Positions 45,501 through 61,761 of a stretch of 64,000 bases of DNA are shown one piece after another (position 1 is the first letter of the stretch; the number at the start of each line of letters is the position of its first letter). The stretch lies in the NCBI GenBank assembly GCA_964517395.1, contig CAZFEE010000003.1, forward strand, positions 259,287 through 323,286. The letters run 5' to 3'. Source of the DNA: an uncultured Nocardioides sp. GTDB lineage: Bacteria; Actinomycetota; Actinomycetes; Propionibacteriales; Nocardioidaceae. The translations under genes were made by a program, and so were the position numbers. Below the pieces are notes generated by a model. That model saw nothing but the letters and a program-made list of their open reading frames with translations, made no database searches and was not told the origin of the DNA.

Positions 45501-48500
45501 CGCGCCCCCAGGTGTCGATGGCGCTGTAGCGCACCCGGTGACAGTCGGCGCCGCACGAGGCGAGGGTGTCGAGCGCGGCCATGTCCGCCGTCGTGGAGAA
45601 GATGCCGCCGTTGGGGCTGGTCGCGGGGTCGGACCACGTGTACTTCGTCGCGAGGCCGTTCGCGCTGCCGCCCGGGGCGTTCGTCCGACGGTCCTTCACC
45701 AGGTCGATCCGGTCGGGGCCGAGCGGTGCCTCGACGTAGGAGAACGTGGTCCTCTCCCCGTTCGCGTCGGTCACCGAGCAGAGCTGGCCCGACGTGATCG
45801 TGCCGTTGACCGAGCCGGGACAGGGGTTGCCCGCGGTCGCGTAGGTGTAGGACGCGGTCGGGCTCGCCCCCGCGGTGGCGGAGAGCGGGTTGCCGGGCTC
45901 CCAGACCTGCAGGAGCAGCGGAAGCGTGAGGTCGCGCGACACGACGTACGACGTGACGCGGCCCGCCGTGTCGGTCACCTTGACGTGGCGGTTGTCGCCG
46001 GCGCCGCCGGCGTCGTAGTCGATGGTGGTCTTCGGGCACGCCGCACCCGAGGTGCAGGACGAGGACCGGATCTGGGTCGGGCCGTACTGGACGCCCGGGG
46101 TGTAGATGAGCTGCTCCCCCGCCGGGTCCGTGACCCGGAGCAGGTTGCCGAGGAGGTCGAAGTCGTACCGGACCCGGTCGGGCCGGACGAGCGACCAGCC
46201 GATCGAGAGGAGCTTGTTCTCCTCGGTGGCGCTCGCGCAGCCGCTGGCGCCCGTGCCGATGTAGCGGAAGAGGAACATGTTCGATCCGGGCGGACCGGCG
46301 TACGCCTGGTCGATGCAGAGCTTTCCGTAGACGAGACCCTCCACCGTCGACGTCAGCGTGAACGGCAGCGTCGCCGGGTTGAGCAGGTCCAGGATCGGCC
46401 CGGCGTCCGGGCTGTTGAGGTCGACCGGCAGGCTCGTCCCGCCGACGGTCGCCGCGACGGAGCGCAGCTTGAAGACGTGCCGGGTGCCGTCGCGGTCGAC
46501 GTACGGCATCGAGAGCGGCTGGAGCACCGTCTGGAGGTTCGGCAGGCTCAGCCCGAACAGCCCGAATCCCCCTGCGAACTCGCCGGTGTCCCCGATGTCG
46601 AACTGCCAGCCGGCGCCGATCGGGCCGCCAGCGGTCATGTGGTCCTGGGAGTTGTAGATGCGGCCCAGACCCATCGCCAGGCGACCCGGCATCTGGACCG
46701 GATCCGTGTCGTACTGCTTCACGACGAGGTTGCCGTTGGCGACGTTGACGCTGGCGCTGCCCCCGCCCCCGAGGTCGGTCGAGTCGAAGGTCCACCAGTC
46801 CTCGAGGCCGAGGCCGCCCCCGCAGACGGTGATGCGGGAGGAGACGGGTCCCGAGCTGCCGAGCAGCGAGGAGGCGACGGCGGGGACGTCGACCAGCTCG
46901 CAGCCCTTCTGGGTGCCGGCGACGGTGGCGAGGAACTCACCGACCCGGGTCTGTCCGGCGGGGATGGCGACGTTCCCGATGGTCGCCGTCAGGTCCTGCA
47001 CGATGCCGCACACGAGGCTTCCGCCGGTCTGACAGAGGTCGAGACCGGAGAGGCTCCCGCTGGCACCCCACGCGAACCCGGTCCCGGCGGCGAGCAGGGT
47101 GTCCTGCAGCGCGGAGACGATCGAGACGTGGTCGGCCGAGGCGATGTCGTTGACGCCGGCGTTGACCGCGGTCAGCGTCACCTTGATGGACTCACCGACC
47201 CAGACGGGGTCGCCCTGGCTCCACTCGTCGTCGCTGGCGTTGTCGATGCCGATCCCGATGACGGGCACGGCAGTGCTGTAGGTCCAGGTGTCGCCGAGGA
47301 AGGCGACCGCATCGGTCGTGCCCCCGAAGAGGACGACCTGCCCGTTGGGGGCGGGCGCCATGGCGCCGGACGCGCGGCCGGACGGGCTCGCGTTGCCGAC
47401 GGCCCGGGACCAGTCGTTGCCCGTCCAGGCCCACGTGTCGTTGCGGAGGGTGATGTTGGTGCCGTCCGTGTCGAGTCCGCCCGTGACGACGACGGCGCCG
47501 AGGCCCGGGTCGTACGTCATCATGTGCTCGCCCCGCTTGGGCGGCACGTGGGCCGGGGACTGGGAGGACCACGACGTCGCCGTCGCCGGCAGGATCCAGG
47601 TGTCGCTCAGGGTCCCGCAGTTGGGACAGGTCCCGCCGGAGCCGCCGAACAGCACCATCTGGCTCGTCGACTGCGAGTAGGCCAACCGGTGGTCGTAGCG
47701 CGCCGTGGGCGCACCGCTGACGCCGGTGGCCTGGACCTGCGTCCAGGCGTTGCTCTTCAGCTGCCACGTGTCGTTGCGGCCGCCGGAGGCGGTCTGCCCG
47801 CCGAAGAGGATCATCGCCGCGCGGTTCGGGTCGTAGGCCATGGCAGCCCCGGTGCGGGCGGTGGGGAGGGTGCCGGTCGGCGCGTCCTGGGCCCAGGTCG
47901 TCCCGTTCCAGGTCCACACGTCGTTGAGCGCGGTCGTCCCCGAGGACTGTCCGCCGAACATGACGAGCACTCCGCGCACCGGGTCCCAGGCGATCGCCGC
48001 CCGGCGCCGGGCTGACGGGCTCACGGTGGGGTACACGCGCGTCCAGCTGGACCCGTTCCACACCCAGGTCTCCGCGTTGAGGACGCCGCCCGCGCCACGG
48101 CCGCCGAAGAGCACGGTCTGTTGCCGGACGGGGTCGTAGGCCATCGCCGCACCGTCACGGTTGGACGGCTTCGACGCGGGGGTCGCCTGCACCCAGTTCG
48201 GGGCGAGGTACTCGCCTGCGGGCGGGGCCGCGGGGGGCGCATGCAGAACCGGCGCCGTCCGTGCACGCGACACGGTCGACGCCGGCGGCGCGACATCGGT
48301 GAGGACCCGGTCGCCGCGCGGCGAGCCGCGAGCGCTCACGGTCCTCGCGCGGACGCTGCCCGAGGAGGCGGCCACGTCGCTGCGGTGCGCGGCGCTCGAG
48401 GGCTGCGCCGAGGGCGCGGCGGCGGATCCATCACCGGGAGCGCCACCCGTACCGTCGTCGGCAGGGTCGTCGGAGGAGCCGGTGGCGGCGTCGGACGGCG

Positions 48501-49116
48501 CGCTGGACGGGTCGCTGCTCGGGTCGCCCGAGGGCTCGTCGGTCGGCCCGTCCGACGCGTCCTCCGACGGGGTCGTCGTCTCGTCGTCCGGCTGGGGAGC
48601 GGGCTTCGGGTCGGGTGCCGGGCGGAACCCGTCGGCGGTGCTGAAGAGCGGCGCGTCGAGGAGGTCGGCGGACTGCCCCGTGGGGTCGGCGACACAGATC
48701 TCGTCCGCGTCGACCCGGTCCCCCACGCCGGCCAGCTCGCCGCGAGCCGGCGCCTCGCCCTCGGGCTCGTCGCAGGACTTCCCGGGCTTGGTCCCCAGCG
48801 GGCCCTCCGGCTCCGTGGTGGGGGCGTCGGGTCCGTCGAGCGCGACGCCCTTCCCACCGCGGGGACGGTCCATCGCGTCGATGGGATCGACCTCGGTGTC
48901 GATCGCCTTGCCGGTGGCGGCCAGGGGCACGTAGGGCTCCTCGCGCTCGCTCGTGACGGCGATGACCGCGACGACCGAGGTGACGAGTGCCAGGCTGATG
49001 CCGGCGGCGATCGCGAGACCGCCCACCCGTCGGGGCCGTGGGCGCCGGCGGTTCCCGCCCTCGCCCGACCTGCCCTTGCCCGCCCCACGCTGCTGCGCCG
49101 CACCGCCAGAGAACAT
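36553..49116 (-). CDS. Giant Rhs/YD polymorphic toxin (~4190 aa): TM/signal anchor, low-complexity spacer, Kelch propeller, LamG, RCC1 propeller, Gly-rich domain, Rhs core, Hint (36925-37353), ADP-ribosyltransferase-like tip
   Basis: Kelch repeats P.AR...AMAYD....VLFGG...DTW.W. LSYWRLDE...WHHV...DELAIY (LamG). WGWG.N..GQ.G.GTT (RCC1). YD repeats. NTYSYVNGNPVNLLDSDG. SF...VLMADG..KPI...EDHPF...AYNLTVEGIHTY.V....LVHN. Tip LYHGT....A..I...G...GPGGFH.A....A..FA...E. ATG 49116 has a GGGAGG RBS. Confidence 0.93.
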   Translation of the reverse strand: MFSGGAAQQRGAGKGRSGEGGNRRRPRPRRVGGLAIAAGISLALVTSVVAVIAVTSEREEPYVPLAATGKAIDTEVDPIDAMDRPRGGKGVALDGPDAPTTEPEGPLGTKPGKSCDEPEGEAPARGELAGVGDRVDADEICVADPTGQSADLLDAPLFSTADGFRPAPDPKPAPQPDDETTTPSEDASDGPTDEPSGDPSSDPSSAPSDAATGSSDDPADDGTGGAPGDGSAAAPSAQPSSAAHRSDVAASSGSVRARTVSARGSPRGDRVLTDVAPPASTVSRARTAPVLHAPPAAPPAGEYLAPNWVQATPASKPSNRDGAAMAYDPVRQQTVLFGGRGAGGVLNAETWVWNGSSWTRVYPTVSPSARRRAAIAWDPVRGVLVMFGGQSSGTTALNDVWTWNGTTWAQDAPTGTLPTARTGAAMAYDPNRAAMILFGGQTASGGRNDTWQLKSNAWTQVQATGVSGAPTARYDHRLAYSQSTSQMVLFGGSGGTCPNCGTLSDTWILPATATSWSSQSPAHVPPKRGEHMMTYDPGLGAVVVTGGLDTDGTNITLRNDTWAWTGNDWSRAVGNASPSGRASGAMAPAPNGQVVLFGGTTDAVAFLGDTWTYSTAVPVIGIGIDNASDDEWSQGDPVWVGESIKVTLTAVNAGVNDIASADHVSIVSALQDTLLAAGTGFAWGASGSLSGLDLCQTGGSLVCGIVQDLTATIGNVAIPAGQTRVGEFLATVAGTQKGCELVDVPAVASSLLGSSGPVSSRITVCGGGLGLEDWWTFDSTDLGGGGSASVNVANGNLVVKQYDTDPVQMPGRLAMGLGRIYNSQDHMTAGGPIGAGWQFDIGDTGEFAGGFGLFGLSLPNLQTVLQPLSMPYVDRDGTRHVFKLRSVAATVGGTSLPVDLNSPDAGPILDLLNPATLPFTLTSTVEGLVYGKLCIDQAYAGPPGSNMFLFRYIGTGASGCASATEENKLLSIGWSLVRPDRVRYDFDLLGNLLRVTDPAGEQLIYTPGVQYGPTQIRSSSCTSGAACPKTTIDYDAGGAGDNRHVKVTDTAGRVTSYVVSRDLTLPLLLQVWEPGNPLSATAGASPTASYTYATAGNPCPGSVNGTITSGQLCSVTDANGERTTFSYVEAPLGPDRIDLVKDRRTNAPGGSANGLATKYTWSDPATSPNGGIFSTTADMAALDTLASCGADCHRVRYSAIDTWGRVGQIAQGTTAGSHANDPGSGTYYAQAGYFWDGMGASGGIASCSQPTLTMNHNLCQVIRRAVPSNLAFTPGSVSTATVSGTTAHDQAVDYLYGDFGQRLRQRVLLDATQQWTDANSSVTTWGSHEQYFDANKNQRFFNNHVRGNGVVKATAAGGTYRQSVLQDAPLSYWRLDETAGTTMSSVTGTNNGGYGAGVTLGEPGIVSGNPALGESTTGWGSAVSPLTGFAQGTSAADSDFTVETWMKAAGTGAEYSFQWGGAAAYASTGRLNGGLPFVALYSNAASAQGAVVYSTTSVADNEWHHVVFRYTGVGDASGIQIWIDGQQAPTAVYSNTLSGPFASTSALALSALSAGASSLDELAIYTSALPPARIQAHYTAARGATRIKPETLYAVVDEIQELSPRGNAPGNTGTWGEYLTSFRRDIPADGELASTNKTAGATVCGTAPRGNTGLLCEVDTPAAKNVSLGSCRRPTGNLPAGSTVAPTPSASYASSCTTYEYNGRGQRTLMRTPKANAASSTSAYEYRYYPIVQSCTGENRSSCDLSGSVSAGGWLKAVVDPAGEKVVYAYDAAGNVARTWDRNASHGKDLAAAWADANAPPSVRYTDTVSSTPVTSDSLSVSNTALIAVGPDGTVTGAGGNASGELGDGSTTARANPVRADPIANAVQVAQSATGAFSGCAFTVFLTGSGQVWATGAGVSTPYKVSGLPTNIISVVAGGCHALALDAEGGLWGWGANNVGQVGNGTTAAVPAPVKVLDNVSTMAAGYVHSMAVTTDGKTWAWGSNNTGQLGLGTTTNRSTPGEVTALKDAGIRQLSGGFASSYAVGRDGTVWSWGYNAYGELADGTTTQRTTPVKVTTLGPGTTAGPVRQVVGSAYGAASLMADGTVRVWGLNNTGQSGGGSSAGAMPAPTTVPDLTGQVAIAGGWATYATADQGGRIRVWGATSNNQLANGSNPTTTGTPTLAGIDISPYRTALWGTQGTRDATGNLTTVTRDRLGQARRTRTGRGHDITSSAYDRMVGYDAAGRPLWSAGAQHRSPGSTARTTYDPFGNPVKTVDARGVASRATYDALNRQVTSQVTRGVAADAPASCSGTATAAQWTAGQDGHRICTSQATYDGVGRQITLTDADGQVTTAHFDAADRKVRLDSPRNHDGVTTLSARWNYDREGRVLDACSPRQFAANEPGHTADSAAGCTSSGVYSRHLDYDAAGNVRSETRYRAGSGQPEPLVTAYGYDADRNTVSVTDANGHETTATYDLLDRREKQTVPRTASRSFTTRWDYDPSGNITAVRAPGSINTGSGADGHLVVDGSVAANSSDGIAHGAGNPFQVPDGAQYRNVTLQNGAHITSAVPNGLVLHATGTVTVCSTCVVTMTGKGSLGGPAGTGANNGNGSDAANPNPGNGGKGGSGGLLGLDPSGGGGGGHKTDGGNAGTAGSGPGLPGKASGTSDFATVGTDYLRGSGGGGGGGGKNLLGVAGAGGNGGGFVRITANRIVVNGSVDASGADGGVGSGSSGGGGGGAGGGIWLAAPDVDLAAATSLDVTGGTGGAGAGNREGGNGAAGYIRIDADAVTNEPAGADRTRAAMITSVSYDAANRPLDTIEGAQTLQADPTVDAGEFAVPDPNGMANTRTRAVYDADGRVVATLPPQAFSNAASLTAPNNSTVRRVDYDLDGLASASYAPRYDNSSGSTTTSVGSGNDGGGTVDQQAAQCTTGRVVDQAAGATNKAATNQNGYPSNYSVLPLTYGSQVGVCVTRTSYDAVGNVKRSWLPTSDGGASGTDNGYLEYSYTGDRLTATITAPDPNSGGRVTAARMRYDGVGREIWNQDANDNLTQTAYTGDGLVRRTVQQAYDPDDNTATGGTNGPLPTVNEVVDFSYDANGNQTKRDNADSSQPLDVTSQTWTSDDLVAQITAPGPDTTAGRTTAVTRYGYDAVGNVTQTWMPEAVENGKRPVRNEFTFDNLLSATHTPITDSSYRSVRYAYSPAGMKVATETARCTSASYADCTPGNTAFLTAGVVKLTYGANGRTASQVGRDRDPLEGPTTSITTTYAQNGGPAKVIDPTSGITTDVGYYLDGMTRRVSESGAGLSGTGSTNTYAYDAAGAVTVRTDKTGASGATADATITSSYRYNHAGLATSMYSDVLDVATSYTWDDAGRILTAQTGAHLAEWTWYPNDGVARSKTVASGTTIAEFRYEYDTNRNITKQTVTGTDGNYTNEYSYTPGQQVKGWTYTPAGGTQQTTTYGWDKNSNRTRVDVNVGGTSNVVTTGYNQDNSITSVDAPGTANDRTYTYNRAGLLTDDGCSTYTYDAFDRTEKQVTSGSASCGNDSRTTRYTYDGLDRQRSMQVTGSSKAGANRTTRSIYDGLGTEMVGQTEAVNGDRSGPTVLYQLDSGGTAVGYEQTGAGAGKAFLDHDGNGNVTSVVSTGHSLVCGARYDPFGTPVEAATGTETNGVCHNSGAASRATGNAAWYRGQVRDGSTGNYQLGTRTYNPGTGTFTTPDSYRVSNSATDLGVGTDPLTMNTYSYVNGNPVNLLDSDGHAPMCVREGTCKYDVTSAGAVPRASTAQEKYADAVSKRDATKKAIKDAEAMQAKEFDVKAVLIDVAKELSGIADIERCIFDKDIGACAMTILSVVGFGFGMAAKIKKLTKGVGKAIDAYKSFRKAQDLAKASLSKLRGGLDELNSSLKGLKKAADAEKKAARAKPAKVGGGGSKTTRKGRDNGTCSLARSFGASTLVLMADGTRKPIKDVQIGDLVLATDPVTGEQVAKRVTHLWVHHDDLTELVLNVDADGDGVPDRLVTTEDHPFWNATDQAWEGPEEFTAGDEVIDEQWNRIEVAGLDPGTTRRDLAYNLTVEGIHTYHVGAADVLVHNTGHDCGRTLYHGTDVESALDILNNGLDSARSGARHIDGPGGFHAATKYTDAEFFALRREPGAVLKIEFTDDAFEALQAAGARLGPIPLGPKSPRFSGDEMHIPDSAFELFNDLRRQGGIRVSP

Positions 49117-49293
49117 GCTCGCCTCCCGAAGGTCACCGATCGACCGTGGTCGGCATCTAACGCGGACCGAGCGCTCCGCACCATGGCCACAATTGACTAT
49201 TGCTGTCACCCCGACGCGTCCTCATGCTTGCCCGTGTTTGACAGCCGCGACGCGCGGGACGGTGCGGCGAAGGCGACCACGCGAGGAGCTGCC

Positions 49294-49665
49294 ATGACGC
49301 CGCGATCACGCCGACAACCACGGAGAATGCCGCTCTGGAGCGGGAACGACGTCTCCGCTCTGACCGGACCCCTCGCCCTGGTGGTCGCGGCCGGCATGGC
49401 CCTGGGCGGGTGCACGGGGGCCGACCCGGCCGAGGTCTCCGCCGTGGCTGACAAGTACACGGGGTCCGCCAATCCGTTGTCAGTACCGATAACGGACACC
49501 CAGGCGCGGTGTCGGGCCGAGGCCTATCTCGAGTCGGACCTGTCGGACGGAGCGCTCGACGACGTGCGGGCCGGCAAGCCGCCCACACCGCGCAACGATC
49601 GCGACGTCGAGGTCCTGGCCGAGCTGGCCACCGTGCTGGCGGAGTGCTTCGCGGACGGGGACTAG
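49294..49665 (+). CDS. Putative lipoprotein
   Basis: GAGGAG RBS. Basic N-terminus, hydrophobic stretch and LGGC lipobox. Divergent from the Rhs gene. Confidence 0.7.
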   Translation: MTPRSRRQPRRMPLWSGNDVSALTGPLALVVAAGMALGGCTGADPAEVSAVADKYTGSANPLSVPITDTQARCRAEAYLESDLSDGALDDVRAGKPPTPRNDRDVEVLAELATVLAECFADGD

Positions 49666-50099
49666 CGCCGAGGATCGACCACGGCCGCTCCCCTCGCCCG
49701 CACCGTCGACGTCGTCGCCGCACCGGGCAGTCCCAGCGGCAGGTCCAGCGGGGCGCTGAGCTCGACCACCACCCGGTCGTCCTCGACCGTGACGCCCGCC
49801 CGCAGCCCCGGATGGTCCCGCAGTGCACCGGTGTCGCGCAGGTACGCCAGCACCGCCCGCTCGGCCGCGCCGCGCGAGACCGTCAACGGGCCGCGGGCGA
49901 GTCCGTCGCCGTACACGTCCTCACCCTGCGCCCCGAGATCCGCGCCCTGGAGGGCGGCACCGTCGGCGAGCTCGTCGAGCCGCTGCCGGGTGAGGTACGC
50001 CGCGCTCGCGTCCACCACCACCGCGACGAGCAGCAGCACCACCGCCACGAACGCGATGAGCATCGGCGCAGCACTGCCGCGGAGGTCCGTCGCGGTCAC
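49662..50099 (-). CDS. Tad pilus assembly protein, TadG-like pseudopilin
   Basis: RG|SAAPMLIAF hydrophobic helix and L..LADGAAL.GA. GTGA coupling. Confidence 0.8.
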   Translation of the reverse strand: MTATDLRGSAAPMLIAFVAVVLLLVAVVVDASAAYLTRQRLDELADGAALQGADLGAQGEDVYGDGLARGPLTVSRGAAERAVLAYLRDTGALRDHPGLRAGVTVEDDRVVVELSAPLDLPLGLPGAATTSTVRARGAAVVDPRR

Positions 50100-50542
50100 G
50101 GGCCGGCCTCGCGGTAGCGGCCGATCGGCACCGTCTGCTCCGCCGTGAGCCGGAAGGTCGGGGCCCCCGCCCCGAGCACGTCCGGCAGCAACGGCAGGGC
50201 GACCGCGGACTCGACCCGCACCGTGATGACGGAGGTGCCGCGGTGGCACGCACGGGGGTACGGCGTGCAGGTCACCTCCACCCGGACCGGCACCTCGTCC
50301 AGGCCCTGGTCGGCGAGCGCCTGGCGAGCGACGGCCACGGCCCGCCGCTCGCCCGCGGCGTCGTCGGGCGCCAAGGCGTAGGCACGCGCCGCCGCCCGCG
50401 CCGCACCACTGACCCCGAAGGACCCGCGCTGGACCTCGAAGACCGACAGCACCACCCACAGCAGGGGCAGCAGCAGGAGGACGCCGAGCCACACGATCTC
50501 GACGAGACCGCTGCCGCGCTCGTCGCGGCGCGCGCGGCTCAC
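50096..50542 (-). CDS. TadE-like pseudopilin
   Basis: DERG|SGLVE prepilin site, TM helix, AARAAARA. Confidence 0.85.
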   Translation of the reverse strand: MSRARRDERGSGLVEIVWLGVLLLLPLLWVVLSVFEVQRGSFGVSGAARAAARAYALAPDDAAGERRAVAVARQALADQGLDEVPVRVEVTCTPYPRACHRGTSVITVRVESAVALPLLPDVLGAGAPTFRLTAEQTVPIGRYREAGP

Positions 50543-50940
50543 GGTGGATCCTCCTCGACCGCGCGCCCGGTGACGGTGAGCTCGACGGCCGGGCCACCGA
50601 GACCGAGCGCCGGCACCGCGGCATGAACGGTGATCTCGACCGCCGGCGCACCGGCCAGGGTGACCCGGCGGACGGCGACGTCGGTGGCGTAGCGGGCGCC
50701 GATCCCCTCGGCCACCTGCTCCCGCGTCCGCGCGACCCCGTCGGCCGGGCCCGCTCCCGCCGTCGCGGCCAGGCGGGCGCCCTCCGAGGCGGCCGCGGCG
50801 AGCGTCGTACGGACGTGGAGGACGAGGGCGACCTGGACGATGCCGAGCACGGCCGGCAGCAGGACCAGGGTGACCAGGGCGAAGTCGACCAGGGCTGAGC
50901 CGCGCTCGTCAGGCCCGCGCCGACCGGGCCGTCGGGTCAC
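50539..50940 (-). CDS. tadE: TadE family pseudopilin
   Basis: DERG|SALVDFALV and AAASEGARLAA. Confidence 0.85.
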   Translation of the reverse strand: MTRRPGRRGPDERGSALVDFALVTLVLLPAVLGIVQVALVLHVRTTLAAAASEGARLAATAGAGPADGVARTREQVAEGIGARYATDVAVRRVTLAGAPAVEITVHAAVPALGLGGPAVELTVTGRAVEEDPP

Positions 50941-51131
50941 TTCACCGAGCTCAGCGCGGACTCGAGCATGCCGACCAGCTGCGGGCGGGCCATGGTCCAG
51001 ATCGCCATCCCGATCGAGATCGTCATGATCGTGATGAGCACCCAGCCGGGCACGTCGCCGCGCTCGTCGGGCCGTCGGCGGCGACGGCGTCGACGGGACA
51101 CGTGGGCAAGGCTGTCGAACGGGCGGGGCAT
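50937..51131 (-). CDS. Flp-type major pilin (actinobacterial DVPGWV type)
   Basis: DERG|DVPGWVLITIMT; 64 aa; GGAAGGAA RBS. Confidence 0.85.
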   Translation of the reverse strand: MPRPFDSLAHVSRRRRRRRRPDERGDVPGWVLITIMTISIGMAIWTMARPQLVGMLESALSSVK

Positions 51132-51151
51132 AGGGGTTCCTTCCGAGAGGG

Positions 51152-51241
51152 TCAACCGGTGAGCGTGAGCCCGACGAAGCCGGGCCAGAAGGCGAACACG
51201 ACGGTCACGGGGAGCACGAGGAACACCACCGGGACCATCAT
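51152..51241 (-). pseudogene. tadC: 3' fragment of tadC (type II secretion F family), cut off by prophage integration
   Basis: My translation MMVPVVFLVLPVTVVFAFWPGFVGLTLTG* matches the last TM helix of actinobacterial TadC and sits directly before the pilin. An in-frame TAA precedes it, and the integrase begins 21 nt further on. Confidence 0.8.
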
Positions 51242-51262
51242 TTAGTTGGTACCCTCCCCGCC

Positions 51263-52744
51263 ATGACGGACAGCCCCCTCATCGCGGCGATCTACGCCCG
51301 CCAGTCCCACGGCAAGACGGCGTCGATCACCCAGCAGATCGACGAGAGTAGAGCTGCGGCCGAGGAAGAGGGGTGGCCGGTAGTCACTGTGTTTCAGGAC
51401 GGCTCCTCAGCCTCGCGGTTCAGCACCAAGAGCCGAGCCGGCTGGGAGCAACTACTGACCGACCTGGACGCGCGGAGGTTCGGCGTCCTCGTGCTCTGGG
51501 AGTCCTCCCGCGGGGATCGCAGGCTCTCCACCTGGGCGGCGATGTTGGAACTCGCCCGTGACCGTGACGTACGCATCTACGTCGTCACCCACGAGCGGCT
51601 GTACGACCTGAACAACGCACGCGACTGGAAGGCCCTGGCGGAGGATGGCACCGACTCGGCCTACGAGAGCGAGAAGACGTCGCTTCGGTCTAGGCGCAAC
51701 ACTGCGGCGCTGGCCAAGTCCGGACGCCCGCACGGCATGGTGGCGTACGGTTACAAGCGAGTGCGTCAGTTCGACGACCGAGGCCGAATGGTCGACAGCC
51801 GGGACGAACTCGTCGAGGAGGAGGCCGCTCTGATTCGAGATGCGGCGCGGCGACTCCTCCGCGGAGAGTCGATGCGCTCGATCGTCAAATCCTTCAATGA
51901 GCAGGGGCGACCGTCACCGAAAGGCAAGGAGTGGAGCAGCACCCAGTTGCGCCAGGTGATGCTTCGCGACCGGAACGCCGGTCTTCGCACACACCGAGGC
52001 GTCGTGGTCGGGAAGGCTGCATGGGACCCGATCTACGACCAAGGCACACATGACCGAGTAGTGGCGACGCTCACCGATCCGACTCGGCTGGTTGGACAGA
52101 GCGATAAGGGTGCGACCCGAAAGCATCTCCTTTCCGGGCTCGCGCTGTGCGGCCGATGCGGCGGCCCGATGCGGGCCACCCCCGGCACGGTGCATCGGGG
52201 CAAGACGATCGCGCCGCGCTACCAATGCAAGGGGTGCATGAAGGTCGCCCGCAAGCAGGATCTCGTCGACGAGCTGGTCGAAGGTGCCGCGGTTCTCCGC
52301 CTCCAGGAGCCTGACACTCTCCGAGCCCTGGCCAGCGGCCAGCCCGAGCGTGCAGCCGAACTCACCAAACTCATCGCAGACGCAGCGGCCCAGTTGGACC
52401 GAGCCGTCGACAAGCTGGCCGATGGCGTATGGACCGAAGCGCAAGTGGACCGTCTCAACGCCCGGCTTCTTCCGCAGATCGAGACCTGGCGAACCGAGCG
52501 CGCGGGGTGCGCACCCCATGACGGCCTGCTCGACCTGATCGGCGAGGACGCGCGCTCGCGCTGGGACGATGCTCCGCTCGACATGAAGCGGGTGGCCTTG
52601 AGTCTGCTGATGCGCGTGACGGTGCTCCCCGCCGGCCCCGGCAAGCGCTTCGACCCTGACGCCGTAGTAGACAGCGGGGCCGGCATCGAGTGGGCGGACA
52701 TGTTGCGCATCGAGTGGCAGGTCGGGGCGATCACCCCGCGGTGA
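51263..52744 (+). CDS. Large serine recombinase (integrase)
   Basis: IYARQS catalytic Ser, D.SSAS...RAGW, recombinase domain (AYGY), zinc ribbon CGRCGGPM...YQC..C, coiled coil. TACCCT -10 is 7 nt before the ATG. Confidence 0.95.
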   Translation: MTDSPLIAAIYARQSHGKTASITQQIDESRAAAEEEGWPVVTVFQDGSSASRFSTKSRAGWEQLLTDLDARRFGVLVLWESSRGDRRLSTWAAMLELARDRDVRIYVVTHERLYDLNNARDWKALAEDGTDSAYESEKTSLRSRRNTAALAKSGRPHGMVAYGYKRVRQFDDRGRMVDSRDELVEEEAALIRDAARRLLRGESMRSIVKSFNEQGRPSPKGKEWSSTQLRQVMLRDRNAGLRTHRGVVVGKAAWDPIYDQGTHDRVVATLTDPTRLVGQSDKGATRKHLLSGLALCGRCGGPMRATPGTVHRGKTIAPRYQCKGCMKVARKQDLVDELVEGAAVLRLQEPDTLRALASGQPERAAELTKLIADAAAQLDRAVDKLADGVWTEAQVDRLNARLLPQIETWRTERAGCAPHDGLLDLIGEDARSRWDDAPLDMKRVALSLLMRVTVLPAGPGKRFDPDAVVDSGAGIEWADMLRIEWQVGAITPR

Positions 52745-53171
52745 CGTCGCCGTCCGTCAACGTCAACTCGGCGTACTCGGGGAGGTGGCGCCCGCGCGTC
52801 TCCCACCACCGCCGCCACGCCTCGATCAGCTTCGGAGTGACTCCGAGCTCGATGGCCAGTGCGGAGACGTGGTGCCCGACCAACTGCTCGGCCTTCCTGT
52901 AGTCCTGCGGCGTGATTAGCAGCGCGGCTCCGTACTCCCAAGCCCTCTTCTCCGCAGCCGGATTGGAGCAGCGGTCACCGAATCTGCGGTGGCCAAGTTC
53001 GTGAGCCAGAGTCGAGGTCGACTGACGACGGTCGAGCCGAGGGTTCAAGGCGACGCCGTCGGTCCACCAGCGGTATTCGCCGCGGCGCTTAGAGCCGAGG
53101 TCGTCGTAGGAAACCTCGATGCCCAAGTCCGCGCAGTGCTGCATGACCAGGTCGTAGCGGTCGCGGGTCAA
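52731..53171 (-). CDS. ImmA/IrrE family metallopeptidase (anti-repressor)
   Basis: STLAHELGH, E..A...AALLI, LA.ELGVT. Start uncertain. Confidence 0.88.
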   Translation of the reverse strand: MTRDRYDLVMQHCADLGIEVSYDDLGSKRRGEYRWWTDGVALNPRLDRRQSTSTLAHELGHRRFGDRCSNPAAEKRAWEYGAALLITPQDYRKAEQLVGHHVSALAIELGVTPKLIEAWRRWWETRGRHLPEYAELTLTDGDVTAG

Positions 53172-53273
53172 CGCGGCTTCATGGCCTCGAGCACTTCCCC
53201 TGTTCTCCGCTGGCCGACGGGCTTCCTCTTACCGTCGTCGCCAGGTGCACGAGGCTGCCACAGGGGTCCGACG

Positions 53274-53753
53274 CTATGGGGTGTCGTCGTGGCCCTGCTC
53301 GTCCTCAATGTCGTGCTCCTCGTCGTGCGCGGCCACGCTCAATGCTTCTAGCGCTTCCAGCTCGCGATAGACCCGGTCGCGGGTTTCATTCATGACGCTC
53401 ATTTGCGTGACGACCGGCAGCAGCGGCAGCAAGGCGCGCATCTCGGTCGAGAACCGCCGGATCTCCAGGCGGCCCACGTCTTCGATGGTGATCTCCACCT
53501 CGCCGCTCGGAGTGGGGACGGCACTGAGCTTCGTGCGCACCACCGCCTGCGCCGCTGCGAGGTCAGCAGGAAGGCCGAGCGCTTCGCGGACTCGGCGCCA
53601 AGTCGAAGGCCGTGGGTTTAGCCCCCCGGTCTCGAGGTTGTAGATCGTCTTCTCGGACACGGCAGCAGCCTCGGCGAGCTGTCGCTGGCTCATGCCGAGC
53701 CGCTCCCGTCGCTCAGCGACGAGCTCGCGCCACTCCATCTCCAAGTCTGTCAT
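53274..53753 (-). CDS. XRE-family HTH phage repressor
   Basis: RRERLGMSQRQLAEAAAVSEKTIYNLETG. Promoter TTGCGT-N18-CAGGCT ends 7 nt before the ATG. Confidence 0.88.
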   Translation of the reverse strand: MTDLEMEWRELVAERRERLGMSQRQLAEAAAVSEKTIYNLETGGLNPRPSTWRRVREALGLPADLAAAQAVVRTKLSAVPTPSGEVEITIEDVGRLEIRRFSTEMRALLPLLPVVTQMSVMNETRDRVYRELEALEALSVAAHDEEHDIEDEQGHDDTP

Positions 53754-53853
53754 GAGAGGCAGCCTGCCCGATCTTACTGCTTTTACGCAAGAGTCCAGTA
53801 AATCAACGCAAGAGACCTTGCACACATCAGTAGTTACGCCTACGTTCTTACGC
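53754..53853. promoter_or_regulatory. Divergent lysis/lysogeny promoter-operator region
   Basis: AT-rich. Rightward TTGCAC-N17-TACGTT (53818-53846); leftward TTGCGT-N18-CAGGCT. Repeats: ACGCAAGAG x2, TTACGC x3, several CAGTA. Confidence 0.75.
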
Positions 53854-54063
53854 ATGGCAGTAACTCGCAGTAGGAGCGGCGTAGGTTCCGCTCTTCGGTC
53901 GGTCCGGAAGGCCGCCGAGATGACGCTCGATGACGTCGCCCAGGCGGCCGGGATCAGCGCTCCGTACCTCTCCAACGTCGAGAACGGCAACGCGACTCCG
54001 TCGGCGAAGTGGGTGCACATGGTCCTCGAGGTCATCGGCGAGCGACTTGAGGACGTGGCATGA
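53854..54063 (+). CDS. Cro-like XRE HTH regulator
   Basis: LRSVRKAAEMTLDDVAQAAGISAPYLSNVENG. Confidence 0.88.
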   Translation: MAVTRSRSGVGSALRSVRKAAEMTLDDVAQAAGISAPYLSNVENGNATPSAKWVHMVLEVIGERLEDVA

Positions 54064-54206
54064 CCGGCGAAGACCGGCGCCCGGCCACCGGCCTCAGCGA
54101 CGAATACTTCGCCGCCTTGGTCAAGTCCGCCCCGCCGCTGACGCCCGAACAGGCCGCTCAGCTCGCCGAGATCTTGGCACCGATCAATGTCAGGGCCGTC
54201 GCGTGA
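54060..54206 (+). CDS. Putative recombination directionality factor (phiRv1 Rv1584c-like), 48 aa
   Basis: Not in the ORF track. MTGEDRRPATGLSDEYFAALVKSAPPLTPEQAAQLAEILAPINVRAVA, coupled by ATGA/GTGA overlaps. The APPLT.EQ...LAE.L.P motif recalls the phiRv1 RDF. Confidence 0.6.
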   Translation: MTGEDRRPATGLSDEYFAALVKSAPPLTPEQAAQLAEILAPINVRAVA

Positions 54207-54433
54207 GCCCCCAGAGGATCCGTCTGACTCGGACACACCTCGCCCAGCTGTCGACCGGGCGTGGCGTTCAGACAAGCCTCGACGCTGCGGCGTACGAAAG
54301 CACCGACAGCGGCTGGGACGACTGGCGCCGACCGGCCTCCCTCGCGGAGTGCTGGCCGCTCGTGCTCCTCGGCGCGGCCCCCCTGCTCGGTCTCGCGTTC
54401 GTGGTGTTCGTCGCGACGCGCGCCTCCACCTGA
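54203..54433 (+). CDS. Phage hypothetical membrane protein
   Basis: GTGA overlap; C-terminal hydrophobic helix. Confidence 0.6.
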   Translation: MSPQRIRLTRTHLAQLSTGRGVQTSLDAAAYESTDSGWDDWRRPASLAECWPLVLLGAAPLLGLAFVVFVATRAST

Positions 54434-54519
54434 GCCCCCTGCATCACCACCCACACGGCAAGCGGGGCCCGGCACATCGCTCGGCAGCGACCGGACCCCA
54501 CCTACGAACGGAGCATCCC

Positions 54520-54849
54520 ATGCACGCGATCACCCGGCTGCGCGCCGCGCGGCACCGCCGCACCATCACGAGCGGCCCCCTCGTCGGGCTCCCCGTGGCC
54601 GCACGCAAGACTCCGTACCCGAACGCCTTCCAGCCGCGGCACTGCGCCGGCGCGCAGGACCCGAGTCTGGGCTGCCTGCACACCCACCCCGGTGAGCAGA
54701 CCTGCGGGTGTGGCCAGGCCGTGCTCCCGCCGGACGGCGATGCGGTCGTGCTGCAGGTCCGCCCGGACGACACCCGCGGCGTGGCGCCGGCGCCGTTCAT
54801 CCGGCACAGCAGCGAGGGCTGCCACCAGACGAGCCCGGTGCCGGCATGA
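54520..54849 (+). CDS. Phage hypothetical protein (Cys/His-containing)
   Basis: GGAG RBS; stop overlaps the next ATG. Confidence 0.6.
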   Translation: MHAITRLRAARHRRTITSGPLVGLPVAARKTPYPNAFQPRHCAGAQDPSLGCLHTHPGEQTCGCGQAVLPPDGDAVVLQVRPDDTRGVAPAPFIRHSSEGCHQTSPVPA

Positions 54850-55481
54850 GCGCCCGGCCCGAGTACGTCTACGTCGCGAGCTCCTGGCGCAACCCGATGC
54901 AGCCCGCCGTGATCGAGGTCCTCCGGGCCGCCGGCATCGACTGCTACGACTTCCGCAACCCCGGCGGCGGCACCGGCTTCTCCTGGGCCGAGGTCAAGGG
55001 CCCGGGCCCCGAGCCGAGCTCCCCGCACTGCGAGCACTGCGGGCTCCCGATCATCCGGTCCACGTTCGCCGCCTTGGGCCGGTGGGAGCCCGACTACGAC
55101 CCCGCCAAGGACCCGGAGATCTGGCGGCACACCAGCACCGGCTACGGCTCCTGCCTCCAGGGAACCGACCGTTTCGCGATCCCGAAGAAGGGCAGCGACT
55201 GGGAGACCAAGGCCGAGTACCTCCGCATGATCGACCACCCCCGCGCGATCGAGGGCTTCGAAGCCGACTTCGCGGCCATGCAGAAGGCCGACACCTTCGT
55301 GATGGTCCTGCCCTGCGGCAAGTCTGCGCACCTCGAGCTCGGCTGGGCCGTCGGCGCCGGCAAGCGGACCGCGATCCTCCTCGAGGACCCCGTCGAGCCC
55401 GAGCTGGTGTACCGGATGGTCGACCACCTAGCGACCTCTGTGGTCGACCTCCTCGGCTGGATGGGGGTCGAGGACGCGTGA
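54846..55481 (+). CDS. Nucleoside 2-deoxyribosyltransferase-like protein with a Cys/His insertion
   Basis: VYVASSWRN, YDFRNP, DF.AM..AD..VMVLPCGKSAHLELGWAVGAGK. Confidence 0.72.
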   Translation: MSARPEYVYVASSWRNPMQPAVIEVLRAAGIDCYDFRNPGGGTGFSWAEVKGPGPEPSSPHCEHCGLPIIRSTFAALGRWEPDYDPAKDPEIWRHTSTGYGSCLQGTDRFAIPKKGSDWETKAEYLRMIDHPRAIEGFEADFAAMQKADTFVMVLPCGKSAHLELGWAVGAGKRTAILLEDPVEPELVYRMVDHLATSVVDLLGWMGVEDA

Positions 55482-55582
55482 CCCCCGACCGCTGGGCCGG
55501 GCTCGGCGCCCTCGCCTACCTGCTGGCCATCGGCCTGACCCTCTTCCTCCTCTACCGCGAGATCACCCGGAAGGACTCCTGA
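55478..55582 (+). CDS. Small phage membrane protein (34 aa)
   Basis: GTGA overlap; single TM helix. Confidence 0.55.
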   Translation: MTPDRWAGLGALAYLLAIGLTLFLLYREITRKDS

Positions 55583-55585
55583 TCC

Positions 55586-56011
55586 ATGACCACCGCACCC
55601 ATCCCCCAGCCGGACGTCGGCAGCGTCCCGGCCCCCGAGGTCACCCCAGCGCCGCGCGTCGTGGTGGCCCCCGAGGGCACCCGCCTGGAGCAGCTGCACG
55701 CCCAGTACGAGGAGGCCAAGGCCGCCAAGGACGAGGCCGAGAAGCGGTTCAAGTCGGTCACCGACGGCATCAAGGCCGAGCTCTCCACCGCCGAGCCCGG
55801 CCAGGGCAAGGTCGAGCTCCGATCCCCCGTCGGGCCGCCGCTGCGCCTGACCTACGTCGAGTCGATGCGCTTCGAGTCCAAGCGCCTCAAGGCCGACGCC
55901 GTGGCCGCCGCCCAGCGCGGGGACCAGTCCCTCGCGCTGCTCTACGCGACCTACGCGACCCAGACCGGGTCCTGGCAGCTGCGCGCGGTCAGCGGATCGG
56001 ACGCCGAGTGA
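55586..56011 (+). CDS. Phage hypothetical coiled-coil protein
   Basis: AAGGA RBS; good codon usage. Confidence 0.75.
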   Translation: MTTAPIPQPDVGSVPAPEVTPAPRVVVAPEGTRLEQLHAQYEEAKAAKDEAEKRFKSVTDGIKAELSTAEPGQGKVELRSPVGPPLRLTYVESMRFESKRLKADAVAAAQRGDQSLALLYATYATQTGSWQLRAVSGSDAE

Positions 56012-56238
56012 TGCGCGCCAAGATCGTCACGACCATCACCACCGAGCTCGGCCTCGAGACGATGGAACCGACGCACGCCATCGAGGTCGAGGACTGCGAC
56101 GGCCTCTCCGAGATTCCCGACGTGCTCGGGTCGATCGTCCTGGGCGCGTTGCGCTCGGCGGAGCGCTCGGTGCGCGCCCAGTTCCCCCGTGTTGACGGGC
56201 TCGCCGAGCGTGTGGACGCCGAGGGCGGTGAGTCCTGA
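56008..56238 (+). CDS. Phage hypothetical protein
   Basis: Overlap-coupled at both ends. Confidence 0.6.
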   Translation: MMRAKIVTTITTELGLETMEPTHAIEVEDCDGLSEIPDVLGSIVLGALRSAERSVRAQFPRVDGLAERVDAEGGES

Positions 56239-56783
56239 TGAGCGGCCTCCGCGGGTACGTCCTGACGTTGACGGCCAAATCCGAGCTCATCACCGAGACC
56301 TGCTTCTCGTGCGGGGTCCTCTTTGCCCTGACTGAGGACTTCAGGAAGCAGCGGTTGCGGGACCGGAAGAACTTCTACTGCCCGAACGGGCACGACCAGC
56401 ACTACGTCGGTGAGACCGACGCCGACCGTCTGAGGAAGGCCCAGGCGCGAGAGACCGCGCTGCGGGACCAGCTCGACGCCTCGGTGCGTGATGCCGAACA
56501 GGTGCGGCAGGCGTTGCTCCGCGACCGTCAGCGCTTCGTCAACGGCGTGTGCCCGTGCTGCAACCGCTCCTTCGAGAACGTGCGGCGGCACATGTCGAGC
56601 CAGCACCCCGACTACGACGTGACGGCGATCAAGAACCCGATCGAGTTCGCGTGCTCCTGCGGGCGGTCCTTCGGCAGCCTCCACGGCCTGCGGATCCACC
56701 AGGGCCGCAGCCGCCCGGAGAACTGGACCGACCCGAAGCTGTCGGACTACCGCCGGCACCTCACGGCAGGGGCGAGCCGATGA
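56238..56783 (+). CDS. Phage zinc-finger protein
   Basis: CFSCG...FYCPNGH, coiled coil, CPCCNRSF..V.RHM...H, CSCGRSF.....L.IH. Confidence 0.75.
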   Translation: MSGLRGYVLTLTAKSELITETCFSCGVLFALTEDFRKQRLRDRKNFYCPNGHDQHYVGETDADRLRKAQARETALRDQLDASVRDAEQVRQALLRDRQRFVNGVCPCCNRSFENVRRHMSSQHPDYDVTAIKNPIEFACSCGRSFGSLHGLRIHQGRSRPENWTDPKLSDYRRHLTAGASR

Positions 56784-57100
56784 AGCAGCAGATCGTCACG
56801 TTGTCCGCCGAGGTCGTCATCACCGTGGCCGACGACGCTCCCGAGGACTGGATCAGCCGCGCCGACGTCCTGGTGCTGCTCACCGGCGCGGCCCTGGGCC
56901 TCACCCCGGACGAGTGCGGAAGCGGTGGGCGCCACGTCGAGACCGGCTACGCGCTGGCCAAGGACAAGTGGGTGGTGGTCGTCGGCGAGGCGGAGAACAT
57001 CTTCCACCGCGTCGGCGGCTACGGCTGCCTGGTCGAGGTCGTGCCCAACTGGCTGGCTGCGGTCGGCTTCCTCGTCGAGATCCAGGGCGAAGTGCTGTGA
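56780..57100 (+). CDS. Second, N-terminally shortened nucleoside deoxyribosyltransferase-like protein
   Basis: I.RADVLVLL...SGGRHVETGYALA..K.VVVVG..ENIFH. Confidence 0.6.
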   Translation: MKQQIVTLSAEVVITVADDAPEDWISRADVLVLLTGAALGLTPDECGSGGRHVETGYALAKDKWVVVVGEAENIFHRVGGYGCLVEVVPNWLAAVGFLVEIQGEVL

Positions 57101-57519
57101 GCGCGACCGCGACCGAGAAGGGCCCGACCCGCAGGGGCACCACGAACCAGAACGTGCGCGGCAACACCGAGGACCGTCGGCGCCGTCGGGAGTACTTGGT
57201 CGAGACCTTCCGCGCAGACGCTCTGCTCTGCACCCTCAGCTTTGACGGGGCGACCACCACCCGAGCAGTCGCGCGCGGTGACCTCGAGCGATTCACCCAG
57301 GTGCAGCGCAGCATCGGCATTGCGGTCACGTCTGCTGAGGCCTGCAGGTGCTACCGCTGCGGCTTCCTACTGACCGTAGACACCGTCACGGTCGACCGGA
57401 TCATCCCTGGGTGCAAGGGCGGTACGTACCGGCGCAGCAACATCCGGCCGGCGTGCGAGGACTGCAACTCGGAGACGGGCGGCGGGCTGTCCAAGGGCGG
57501 ACGGGGGCATGCGGCGTGA
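57097..57519 (+). CDS. HNH endonuclease family protein (actinophage type)
   Basis: CYRCG...VTVDRIIPG..GGTY...NIRPAC..CN. Confidence 0.8.
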   Translation: MSATATEKGPTRRGTTNQNVRGNTEDRRRRREYLVETFRADALLCTLSFDGATTTRAVARGDLERFTQVQRSIGIAVTSAEACRCYRCGFLLTVDTVTVDRIIPGCKGGTYRRSNIRPACEDCNSETGGGLSKGGRGHAA

Positions 57520-58346
57520 CCGCCCCGACCATGTCTCCGGACGAGTTCATGGCGACCGCGGCGAAGTCCTCGCCGAGCGGGTCGAGCACCTGGGCCAGCC
57601 TGTACGCCGGCGAGCTCAAGCGCGTCTTCCTCGACCACGCCGCCCGCGCGCCGCGCACGCTGCAGCAGCACCTCGGCCCGTCCGAGATCGGTGTGGAGTG
57701 CGACCGGCAGGTCGTTGGGAAGATGGCCGCCCTGCCCGCCACGAACCACGTCAGCGACCCGTGGCCGAGCCTCGTCGGCACCGCGCTGCACGCCTGGGCC
57801 GAGGGCGCCTTCCAGGCCGACAACGTGCGCCGCGGCGTGCTGCGGTGGCTGACCGAGACCAAGGTCAACCCGCACCCCGACCACCCCGGCACCGCCGACC
57901 TGTACGACGCCGTCGAGGTCGCGGTCGTCGACCACAAGTTCCTCGGCGAGTCGTCGATGGCGAAGGTGCGCAAGGACCCGCCGCGCAAGTACCGGCGCCA
58001 GCTCATGCTCTACGGCCTGGGCTACATCAAGCTCGGCCTGCCCGTGCGCCGCGTCGCGTTGGCGGCCTACCCGCGGACCGCGCCGAGCCTGGACGGGCTC
58101 TACGTGTGGGACCACGAGCTGACCAGCGACGGCTTCACCCTGCTCCCCGACGTGCTCGCCGAGCTCGAGGACACCTTCGCCGAGACCGCCCGCCGGCGTG
58201 CCATGGCCGACGAGCTGATCGCCGGGCGCCTGCCGTTTAACGCGGTGCCCAAGGACACCAGCGACTGCTACTTCTGCCCGTTCTACCGGCCCCAGGCCGC
58301 GGCCGACGGCGGCACCGGCTGCCCGGGCCCGAAGAACGGCCCGTAG
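57516..58346 (+). CDS. PD-(D/E)XK Cas4/RecB-like phage exonuclease
   Basis: LGPSEIG..CDR, GTALH, GTADLYD....VVDHK, Q...YG.G, CYFCPF...C. Confidence 0.85.
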   Translation: MTAPTMSPDEFMATAAKSSPSGSSTWASLYAGELKRVFLDHAARAPRTLQQHLGPSEIGVECDRQVVGKMAALPATNHVSDPWPSLVGTALHAWAEGAFQADNVRRGVLRWLTETKVNPHPDHPGTADLYDAVEVAVVDHKFLGESSMAKVRKDPPRKYRRQLMLYGLGYIKLGLPVRRVALAAYPRTAPSLDGLYVWDHELTSDGFTLLPDVLAELEDTFAETARRRAMADELIAGRLPFNAVPKDTSDCYFCPFYRPQAAADGGTGCPGPKNGP

Positions 58347-58448
58347 CGCTCCACCAGTCTCCCCGCGCCCAATCCCTGAGCGCGGGGTCTGCCGGCCCAA
58401 CCGCCTAACGCGGGTCGGTCCCTTCCATCACCAGCAGAAAGCACGCTC

Positions 58449-59453
58449 ATGACCCAGCAGCCGTTCTACCCCCAGCAGTTCCCGCAGCAGCCCTACCCCG
58501 TCGACTCCGGCCCGCAGGGGTATCCCCCGCAGCAGGGCTACGCCCAGCCGGGCTACCCCCCGCAGCAGGGCTACCCGCCCGCGTTCCCCCAGCAGGGGTA
58601 CGCGCCGCAGGTCGCTCCCCAGGCGCCGGCCCAGCCGCTCGCCAACGGGTCGCTCGACGACTTCTACGCGCAGCCGTCGAGCAGCAGCGGGCCGGGCATC
58701 AAGTGGACCAACCCCGACGGATCGCAGAAGCCCATCGGCACCTCGTACACGGGCACGGTCGCCCGGGACGTGACGCACGGTGACGTGCAGCAGATCACGA
58801 ACCCGCAGGGCGTGCCGCAGTTCTACCGCGACGGTCGTCCGAAGTTCCAGATGAAGGTTCCGCTCAAGCTGCAGCACCCCGAGTTCCCCGACGGTGAGGC
58901 CACCTTCTACGTGAAGGGCCAGGCCAAGGACGAGCTCACCCGGGCCATGACGGCCCTCGGGCTGGATGGCTCCCCGAAGGGTGGCGACGTCATCCGCGTC
59001 ACGCTGGTCCAGCGGCGTCCCAACCCCGGGATGCAGCCGACCAACGTCGTGCAGATCGACTACCACCGCCCCGACGGCGGCCAGTCCGCCCAGGGCCAGC
59101 CGGCCCAGCAGGTCCAGCAGCCGGTCCCGACGGAGGCACCTTCCCCGGTCGCCGTCGCCCAGCCGCAGGTCCAGCAGCCCCAGATCCAGCCGGGGCAGCC
59201 GCAGGTCAACCCGTACGCCCAGGGCGGCCAGGTCGTCCAGCAGGCGCCGGGCCAGCAGTTCCCGCAGCAGCCCCAGGGTGGCCAGGTCGTCCAGCAGCCG
59301 GTGCAGGGCCAGCAGCCCCAGCAGCCGACCTTCCCGCCGGCACAGCAGCCCCAGCAGCAGGCCCCGGGGCAGATCGCCTTGCCGGACACGCTGAACCCGG
59401 GCCAGCAGGCGCTGTTCGCCCAGCTCGCCGGCACCCAGCAGGCGCAGGGCTGA
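58449..59453 (+). CDS. Probable phage ssDNA-binding protein with Pro/Gln-rich termini
   Basis: Beta-rich core (G.V...Q...G.P..Y.DGRPK.Q) between exonuclease and helicase. Low-complexity GYPPQQ and QQP tails. Confidence 0.6.
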   Translation: MTQQPFYPQQFPQQPYPVDSGPQGYPPQQGYAQPGYPPQQGYPPAFPQQGYAPQVAPQAPAQPLANGSLDDFYAQPSSSSGPGIKWTNPDGSQKPIGTSYTGTVARDVTHGDVQQITNPQGVPQFYRDGRPKFQMKVPLKLQHPEFPDGEATFYVKGQAKDELTRAMTALGLDGSPKGGDVIRVTLVQRRPNPGMQPTNVVQIDYHRPDGGQSAQGQPAQQVQQPVPTEAPSPVAVAQPQVQQPQIQPGQPQVNPYAQGGQVVQQAPGQQFPQQPQGGQVVQQPVQGQQPQQPTFPPAQQPQQQAPGQIALPDTLNPGQQALFAQLAGTQQAQG

Positions 59454-59459
59454 TCCACC

Positions 59460-61247: not shown

Positions 61248-61284
61248 TTGCCGCGCCTACAACCCGACCTCGAAAGGCGATCTC

Positions 61285-61761
61285 ATGAGCGACCTCAAGC
61301 CCGGCGAGTTCCGCGGGCGCTGCAACCTGGCTAAGCCGCACGCCGTCAGTGAGCTGCCGCATTACCTACGGCGCGAGTACGAAGAGAAGGGATGGCGGAA
61401 GGGCGTTCGCACGGTCCGCGTTAGGCGTGACCTGCGCCGAGTGGAGTGCTTTCTCGAGCCGCTCTGCGACGGGTTCGAGACCACCGATAAGGAGGCCTTC
61501 GAAGCTCACATGCGCGACGTGCACGGCAAGAGCCAAATGCGCGGGGAGAACGCCGCGCTGGTCGCCCGCGCAACCGGCCGCTGGCGCACACCGAAGGCTA
61601 AGCCCGACGGCACGCCGTATGTCGCCACCAAGGCCTTCGTCGGCCAGACCACTACCTGCGAGGGCTGCGGGCTGGTGATGGAGAACGGCAGCACCTACGC
61701 AGACGAGTTGTTCGTACGCGAGCACCTCGATTTCTGCGCGGGACGGGCGGGTGCGGCATGA
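61285..61761 (+). CDS. Phage hypothetical protein with zinc-finger-like motifs
   Basis: GAAAGG RBS; C....C...HM..VH and CEGCG...H...C. Confidence 0.7.
   Translation: MSDLKPGEFRGRCNLAKPHAVSELPHYLRREYEEKGWRKGVRTVRVRRDLRRVECFLEPLCDGFETTDKEAFEAHMRDVHGKSQMRGENAALVARATGRWRTPKAKPDGTPYVATKAFVGQTTTCEGCGLVMENGSTYADELFVREHLDFCAGRAGAA

Follow-up and report, generated by a model that had tools for sequence, protein, structure and literature searches.

The DNA analysed here is a 64,000-nucleotide stretch of contig CAZFEE010000003.1 (positions 259,287 to 323,286; assembly GCA_964517395.1) from an uncultured Nocardioides species, and is referred to below as the window. It holds the downstream part of a Tad/Flp pilus operon, which breaks off within tadC at the edge of an integrated prophage; the upstream genes lie beyond the end of the window, where tadA is interrupted by a second, smaller element. 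Read through both interruptions, the operon order is tadA, tadB, tadC, a small open reading frame (ORF), tadE, tadE/F and tadG. The host genome (G000) is 4.9 Mb with 72% GC. Positions above 64000 are extended window coordinates, that is, the position on the contig (C3) minus 259286. The genes of the operon are as follows (aa, amino acids; HMM, hidden Markov model).

49662 to 50102, minus strand: tadG-like pseudopilin gene (PF13400; end approximate)
50096 to 50542, minus strand: tadE/F-like pseudopilin gene, an ORF with no Pfam match, its position conserved in relatives
50539 to 50940, minus strand: tadE pseudopilin gene (PF07811)
50937 to 51155, minus strand: small pilin-like ORF, without the canonical Flp Glu-Tyr motif, kept in relatives
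51152 to 51241, minus strand: 3' remnant of tadC, encoding the last membrane helix (TadC C-terminus HMM, E 5e-16; hydropathy)
93152 to 94039, minus strand: 5' part of tadC (PF00482)
94036 to 94887, minus strand: tadB (PF00482)
94889 to 95852, minus strand: 3' part of tadA
104151 to 104440, minus strand: 5' part of tadA

A first-pass annotation of the window had placed a prophage inside tadC, and the mapped ends bear this out. A 14-bp direct repeat, present in exactly two copies in the whole genome, forms a core shared by both junctions, and the two gene halves flank it. The far end of the prophage was found beyond the window, where the right copy of the repeat adjoins 5' tadC and then tadB.

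51228 to 51241: left copy of the 14-bp repeat, with the crossover dinucleotide predicted at 51231-51232, the first two bases of the Pro282 codon
51242 to 93205 (C3 310528-352491): prophage, 41,964 bp, of which 51242 to 64000 lies within the window
51263 to 52744, plus strand: large serine integrase, 493 aa (PF00239, PF07508, PF13408)
52731 to 53171, minus strand: IrrE/ImmA-like metalloprotease (PF06114; phrog_87)
53274 to 53753, minus strand: XRE repressor (domain and PHROG matches)
53854 to 54063, plus strand: Cro-like XRE regulator (domain and PHROG matches)
54060 to 54206, plus strand: 48-aa candidate recombination directionality factor (RDF), matching an integrase-linked family in its C-terminal half (HMM E 3e-8)
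93192 to 93205 (C3 352478-352491): right copy of the 14-bp repeat, outside the window

Deletion of the 41,964 bp in silico joins 5' tadC in frame to the remnant, giving a 307-aa TadC with an end that matches intact relatives. As had been described, the remnant is a 29-codon ORF preceded by an in-frame TAA (51242-51244), and the integrase ATG at 51263 follows the junction after a gap of 21 nt. The 29-aa peptide has no Pfam match, and its proposed identity as the end of TadC is upheld by a match (E 5e-16) to a TadC C-terminus HMM built from nine relatives. Host DNA in the strict sense makes up about 26 of the 29 codons; codons one to three lie within the repeat, on the phage side of the crossover. 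In the lysogen the tadC frame closes after 295 residues, with the phage supplying the final 12, and TadC loses its last hydrophobic helix (residues 274-306); the truncated protein would be dead. We considered a phage-borne replacement for the 3' end of tadC and ruled it out, as the lysogen frame stops after those 12 residues without the last helix. The insertion also parts tadC from the pilin-like genes downstream.

Support for the junction comes from four sequencing runs compared over 50000-54300, with run X1, possibly the source of this DNA, not counted as independent support. In run X4 the site is empty: a contig follows 50000-51241 with 13 differences and then continues into the 30 letters that follow the right repeat. 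Run X2, from another study, holds the end of a related prophage with the same junction, with 88 differences over 4,183 bp. Within the integrase 26 differences are listed (from 40 of 91 difference rows), and third codon positions account for 22 of them. A free attP (phage attachment site) is found on a viral contig, L111, with an integrase 75% identical to that of the prophage and no tad gene upstream. It shares 33 of 56 bases with the attP predicted here and forms a dyad of 17/28 pairs, against 11/28 in ours, centred at the equivalent of 51231/51232. We therefore place the predicted crossover on this dinucleotide, the CC that opens the Pro282 codon. The imperfect inverted repeat previously noted at 51231-51254 does exist, but it is not the attachment dyad: it extends from the crossover into the phage arm. 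We rejected it in that role in favour of the dyad centred on 51231/51232, and inspection by eye shows no such repeat in the L111 attP. For both elements the predicted crossover falls on the CC of a proline codon, the two bases that do not vary among codons for this residue (51231-51232; 95850-95852).

A Shine-Dalgarno-like run lies on the phage arm (51242-51260, minus strand), 10 nt ahead of the ATG of the remnant. The last TadC helix might be made separately, given a transcript that reaches it; we regard this as only a lead, because the likeness of attP to attB (the host site) also predicts an in-frame ATG or TTG in the arms of relatives. A promoter scan of 49500-54500 returned no sigma-70-type site, a result that is uninformative at 72% GC.

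The second lesion lies outside the 64-kb window, where an 8,301-bp element that we call a satellite splits tadA at codon 97.

95853 to 104153: second element (satellite), 8,301 bp
95883 to 97352: satellite serine integrase, 489 aa
97784 to 98008: satellite RDF-like ORF
100321 to 101535: satellite capsid gene

Its integrase is 34% identical to that of the prophage, and its attachment site has a 3-bp core within a 50-bp dyad of 15/25 pairs. It also carries a replication protein and, by eye, a portal-like ORF; no terminase or tail gene was seen in it. We liken it to phiRv1-type satellites (mentioned in PMC5311408 and PMC12286644), which are similarly small, with a serine integrase and a nearby protein of about 70 aa; the capsid gene and the lack of a visible tail gene fit the same likeness. 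Removed in silico, the satellite leaves a tadA that rejoins in frame to encode 416 aa, and neither tadA nor tadC has a further lesion.

The 48-aa ORF at 54060-54206 is present as the first-pass annotation claimed, and may, as also proposed there, resemble the phiRv1 RDF. Its comparison with the satellite's small ORF was made through a family HMM, built from homologues of the latter with the prophage's own loci excluded. Run against 822 segments from the region of the two elements, this HMM matched the 48-aa ORF at E 3e-8, with only its C-terminal half aligned; the sole other scorer was the satellite ORF, so that each element has exactly one such gene. A counterpart in L111 follows the cro-like gene, the equivalent position, and in phage Collard the gene 3' of the serine integrase matches the family at E 2e-14. 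The family's matches sit in loci that had been fetched for their integrases, a sample biased towards that association. The experimentally tested RDF phiJoe gp52 does not match the HMM, BLASTP between the two small ORFs gave no alignment, and neither belongs to a Pfam or PHROG family; the satellite ORF has no match in the Protein Data Bank (PDB), and matches in the Atlas carried no names. A role as RDF is plausible for the 48-aa protein on these sequence comparisons, and it would then drive excision.

The first-pass annotation had suggested that the insertion is a reversible pilus switch, the prophage excising without lysis on a host signal and thereby restoring the pilus. In known active-lysogeny switches, such as the Listeria comK prophage and the Bacillus skin and SPbeta elements, a serine-integrase element likewise splits a gene that precise excision would restore. 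Both tadA and tadC rejoin in frame without other damage, the integrase looks to be under selection from the excess of third-position differences given above, and the RDF-like gene is present. The two systems differ, however, in the second lesion here, in tadA, and in the place of the RDF-like gene, within the phage early operon: it overlaps the cro-like gene at the head of that operon, as in the free phage L111. Precise excision would indeed restore the tadC frame, but prophage excision alone would not restore the operon, because the ATPase gene tadA is also split; two independent elements would have to leave jointly. Most relatives carry no element, the prophage has a virion module, and run X1 lists no attB or attP branch among its contigs, which drop rare variants. 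The switch is not supported in this strain, and we consider it improbable as an account of the insertions.

The prophage is a tailed phage. PHROG matches among the 23 proteins scanned include terminase, portal, protease, capsid, tape measure, tail fibre, helicase and primase-polymerase, so that head, tail and replication modules are all represented; the candidate ORF for an endolysin gave no match. The prophage also encodes a fused primase-helicase-DNA polymerase of 1,538 aa (66785-71401). Among the matches listed, the closest integrases of cultured phages are at most 34% and at most 36% identical to the two integrases. A single-sequence search with the prophage integrase found no match in viral contigs and one in 400 genomes of the genus. 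Three further recombinase-domain matches occur in the host genome (C1:2397735, C2:117272 and C2:101521).

A profile search was needed because single-sequence searches with the integrase found next to nothing. Using a profile of 19 integrases we retrieved 103 loci (35 from genomes, 61 from metagenomes and 7 viral), and 21 of them have tadC cut at the same motif beside an integrase, as was looked for in relatives. The loci are not all distinct: L015 and L050 belong to the same contig, and two further pairs are near-copies. Thirteen of the 21 are oriented as here and eight are opposite. In a FastTree tree, 17 tadC-site integrases, including that of this prophage, form one starred clade with L111 (18 rows). 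The records are named Promicromonosporaceae, Nakamurella, Geodermatophilaceae, Marmoricola, Aeromicrobium and Jatrophihabitans, and by these comparisons the tadC site appears to be old and shared. More distant members of the profile use tadA, the small pilin-like ORF (in Microbacterium) or unrelated genes as their target. Both orientations are seen at one crossover (L016, L020, L021, L022, L051, L058, L060 and L061 as against L015, L017-L019, L052-L056 and L072). As these integrases belong to a single clade, it is likely that attP has flipped relative to the integrase gene more than once. In L079 and L083 (3203-3949) a related integrase stands beside a conserved ORF of about 250 aa, with no Pfam family, upstream of an intact tadA.

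We searched 401 genomes of the genus with the satellite integrase (E <= 1e-40) and inspected the flanks of all matches. There are 70, in 57 genomes, and 30 of them lie in this operon, from 29 genomes including the host of the window; among the 30, in G017 it is a second copy of tadA that is hit, and the assignment of G266 relies only on the tree and the neighbouring gene. Of the other 40, comM holds 8, comEA 2 and a further tadA 2; the remaining 28 are in other or unidentified targets, in several cases at the end of a contig. By residue mapping, the tadA sites are near codons 97, 152, 165, 214, 241, 275 and 300 and the tadC sites near codons 281-282 and 297, and the small ORF is also used. In all, about ten sites in an operon of less than 5 kb are used by several integrase clades, which points to recurrent, independent targeting. 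In the FastTree tree, users of the operon are spread over several starred clades and mixed with users of comM and comEA. Two genomes have more than one lesion: G091 has two elements within tadA, and in G254 tadC is cut and tadA starts at codon 165. Exact-repeat mapping of the junctions of other elements returned chance words only.

Because the seed biases that search, a draw that did not start from any integrase was also used. Of 36 genomes of the genus drawn, 34 have this tadC, and in four of these (G015, G023, G024 and G025) the operon holds an element with a serine integrase. In three more the gene is cut or breaks off at a recurring codon: two have tadA cut at codon ~325, and in the third the contig begins at codon 242. 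In the two cut at codon ~325 (G009 and G034, of two species; loci L256 and L257), no integrase or 5' part was found within 19.5 kb, and codon ~325 is possibly a site for large elements. At 12-21% per genome, double insertions such as the one described here would be expected now and then by chance. Among 10 genomes of other families, a serine-integrase element directly follows tadC in one, and tadA is cut near codon 291 in another. In one locus (L259, genome G047; 9400-19700) a 10-kb insert lies between tadC and the small ORF, with an integrase 62% identical to that of the satellite at tadA codon 97, although the two use different sites.

Recurrence of this kind could reflect no more than a convenient landing pad, the operon being targeted as a conserved, near-universal and dispensable locus whatever its function. 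This tadC is present in 344 of the 401 genomes, full-length relatives in the genus being 55-68% identical, and insertion takes place at invariant motifs, the Walker A box and Pro codons among them; kin integrases also enter unrelated conserved genes, for example one for an MFS transporter. Against this, the targets next in rank are comM and comEA, which are not a random set, and of the four other tadA loci in the host, homologues of just one were seen targeted, twice. On balance we find this explanation unlikely, though clearly better placed than the switch.

What the elements carry bears on another explanation. Ten other elements were mapped end to end (7.9-16 kb), and 65 of their 119 ORFs were scanned, the integrases and mostly short ORFs being left out. 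One has terminase, portal and capsid genes. The other nine have no virion gene among the ORFs scanned; their matches are to restriction-modification, GmrSD, DndB, ArdA, resolvase or primase, or there are none. Defence-type cargo occurs in L161, L166, L172, L156 and L160 (type II and type I restriction-modification, GmrSD, DndB, ArdA, SocA/Panacea and RelA/SpoT).

The first-pass annotation had suggested that the pilus is the phage's own receptor, and lysogeny could then abolish the receptor against superinfection. Tad pili are phage receptors in Caulobacter, and the tadC element is, from its PHROG matches, a tailed phage. The nine elements without visible virion genes weaken this suggestion, and in the strain described here the later of the two elements probably entered a cell in which the operon was already broken. 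The kin integrases moreover use comM and comEA, which are not known to be phage receptors. We give receptor removal little credence.

The presence of comM and comEA among the targets is in keeping with a link to natural transformation. Micrococcus luteus (PMC4322843) has a tad-1 cluster of seven ORFs in the same order, without the major pilin, which is in tad-2; both clusters are required for pili and for transformation, and tad mutants have no adhesion defect. The operon described here has the same seven-gene order without a canonical Flp pilin. Its 72-aa ORF, which had been called a pilin, is present and conserved, but no Pfam family matches it and the Glu-Tyr motif is absent. That motif is found in three other ORFs, at two other tad loci of the host genome. 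The host also has matches to comEC, dprA and comM, none with internal stops.

We set out the following explanation, to which we give a probability of roughly 55%: the elements target this operon because it helps to build a DNA-uptake pilus, and its loss protects an integrated element from transformation. Within this one Tad operon, tadC holds a temperate phage and tadA a satellite, each inserted by its own serine integrase. By analogy to M. luteus tad-1, the operon would help to build the competence pilus; a broken pilus would shield the integrated element from removal by transformation, which would be the selective cause, and excision would accompany lytic induction. Prophages and islands in comYC, comFA, comK and comM are known, and the benefit to an element of disabling competence has been modelled (PMC4774983). 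The best reading of the insertions is that they follow a known habit of mobile elements that disable competence genes, at a target not found in the literature searched.

Several observations weigh against this explanation. A role of the operon in transformation in this genus is proposed by analogy to the M. luteus system, and the two operons are putative orthologues from their gene order. Co-loss of comEC and tadC was not seen: all 10 tested genomes without this tadC retain comEC. The seed integrase of the genus search itself targets the operon, which biases the operon's share upward; three candidates per genome were scored, and 28 of the 70 matches are in other or unidentified targets. Finally, a second insertion into an operon that is already broken gains nothing under the competence model.

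The known competence-gene islands (PMC4774983) resemble the insertions described here in their conserved position in a DNA-uptake gene, in distinct integrases at distinct sites and in the empty site of relatives. They differ in target, which here is an actinomycetotal Tad/Flp operon rather than the Com pilus or comM, and here the competence role is by analogy. In a survey of serine-recombinase targets (Durrant et al. 2022, PMC10083194), the strongest enrichment is for competence genes; T2SSE, also enriched, has 15 target clusters (false discovery rate (FDR) 0.03), and T2SSF has 9, which is not significant (FDR 0.18). Its Supplementary Note 1 names ComK and genes of the ComG operon as targets. 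The terms 'TadC' and 'Nocardioides' are absent from eight of its supplement files, where such sites may stand unnamed, attB sequences not having been searched. No insertion is described in the available text on M. luteus tad-1 (PMC4322843); the present host differs from that system in having a PilC-like gene and four further tadA loci. No description of Tad operons in actinobacteria as hotspots of integration was found in the literature searched (titles and starts of abstracts, with few subscription papers covered), nor by term look-up in the accessible text of PMC3218068, PMC6668835, PMC10654092, PMC8467076, PMC12884075 and the bioRxiv version of Durrant et al. Targeting of competence genes by integrases is already established, and the Tad operon as a target was not found in print.

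In several relatives prfB, recognised by eye, directly follows tadG; here prfB lies downstream as well, beyond an intervening RHS region. This region holds a very large RHS-repeat ORF (36553-49209, minus strand), which encodes 4,218 aa if read from its first start codon. The ORF has a Hint-like region, and its tip is variable; orphan fragments of such tips come after it (31400-36700). These domain names were assigned by eye.

Taken as one prophage insertion, the locus is ordinary. A link between the Tad pilus and transformation has, among actinobacteria, been made mainly for M. luteus (PMC4322843). The mapped attB/attP pairs are candidate integration tools for such hosts, and, as the lysogen and a near-identical strain with the empty site are both in sequence data, a test is practical. 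A broader proposal, which we hold tentatively and think somewhat less probable than its negation, is that integrative elements across Actinomycetota that target competence enter the tad-1-type operon above all, more often than comM, and that their landing sites mark a widespread, unrecognised transformation system in Nocardioides-like and many other actinobacteria, turned off in about one lineage in six by excisable elements. If the link to competence is true, the landing sites of these elements would speak, indirectly and in a way that can be tested, for Tad-dependent competence in many further families of actinobacteria, and would also tell which Tad cluster serves it.

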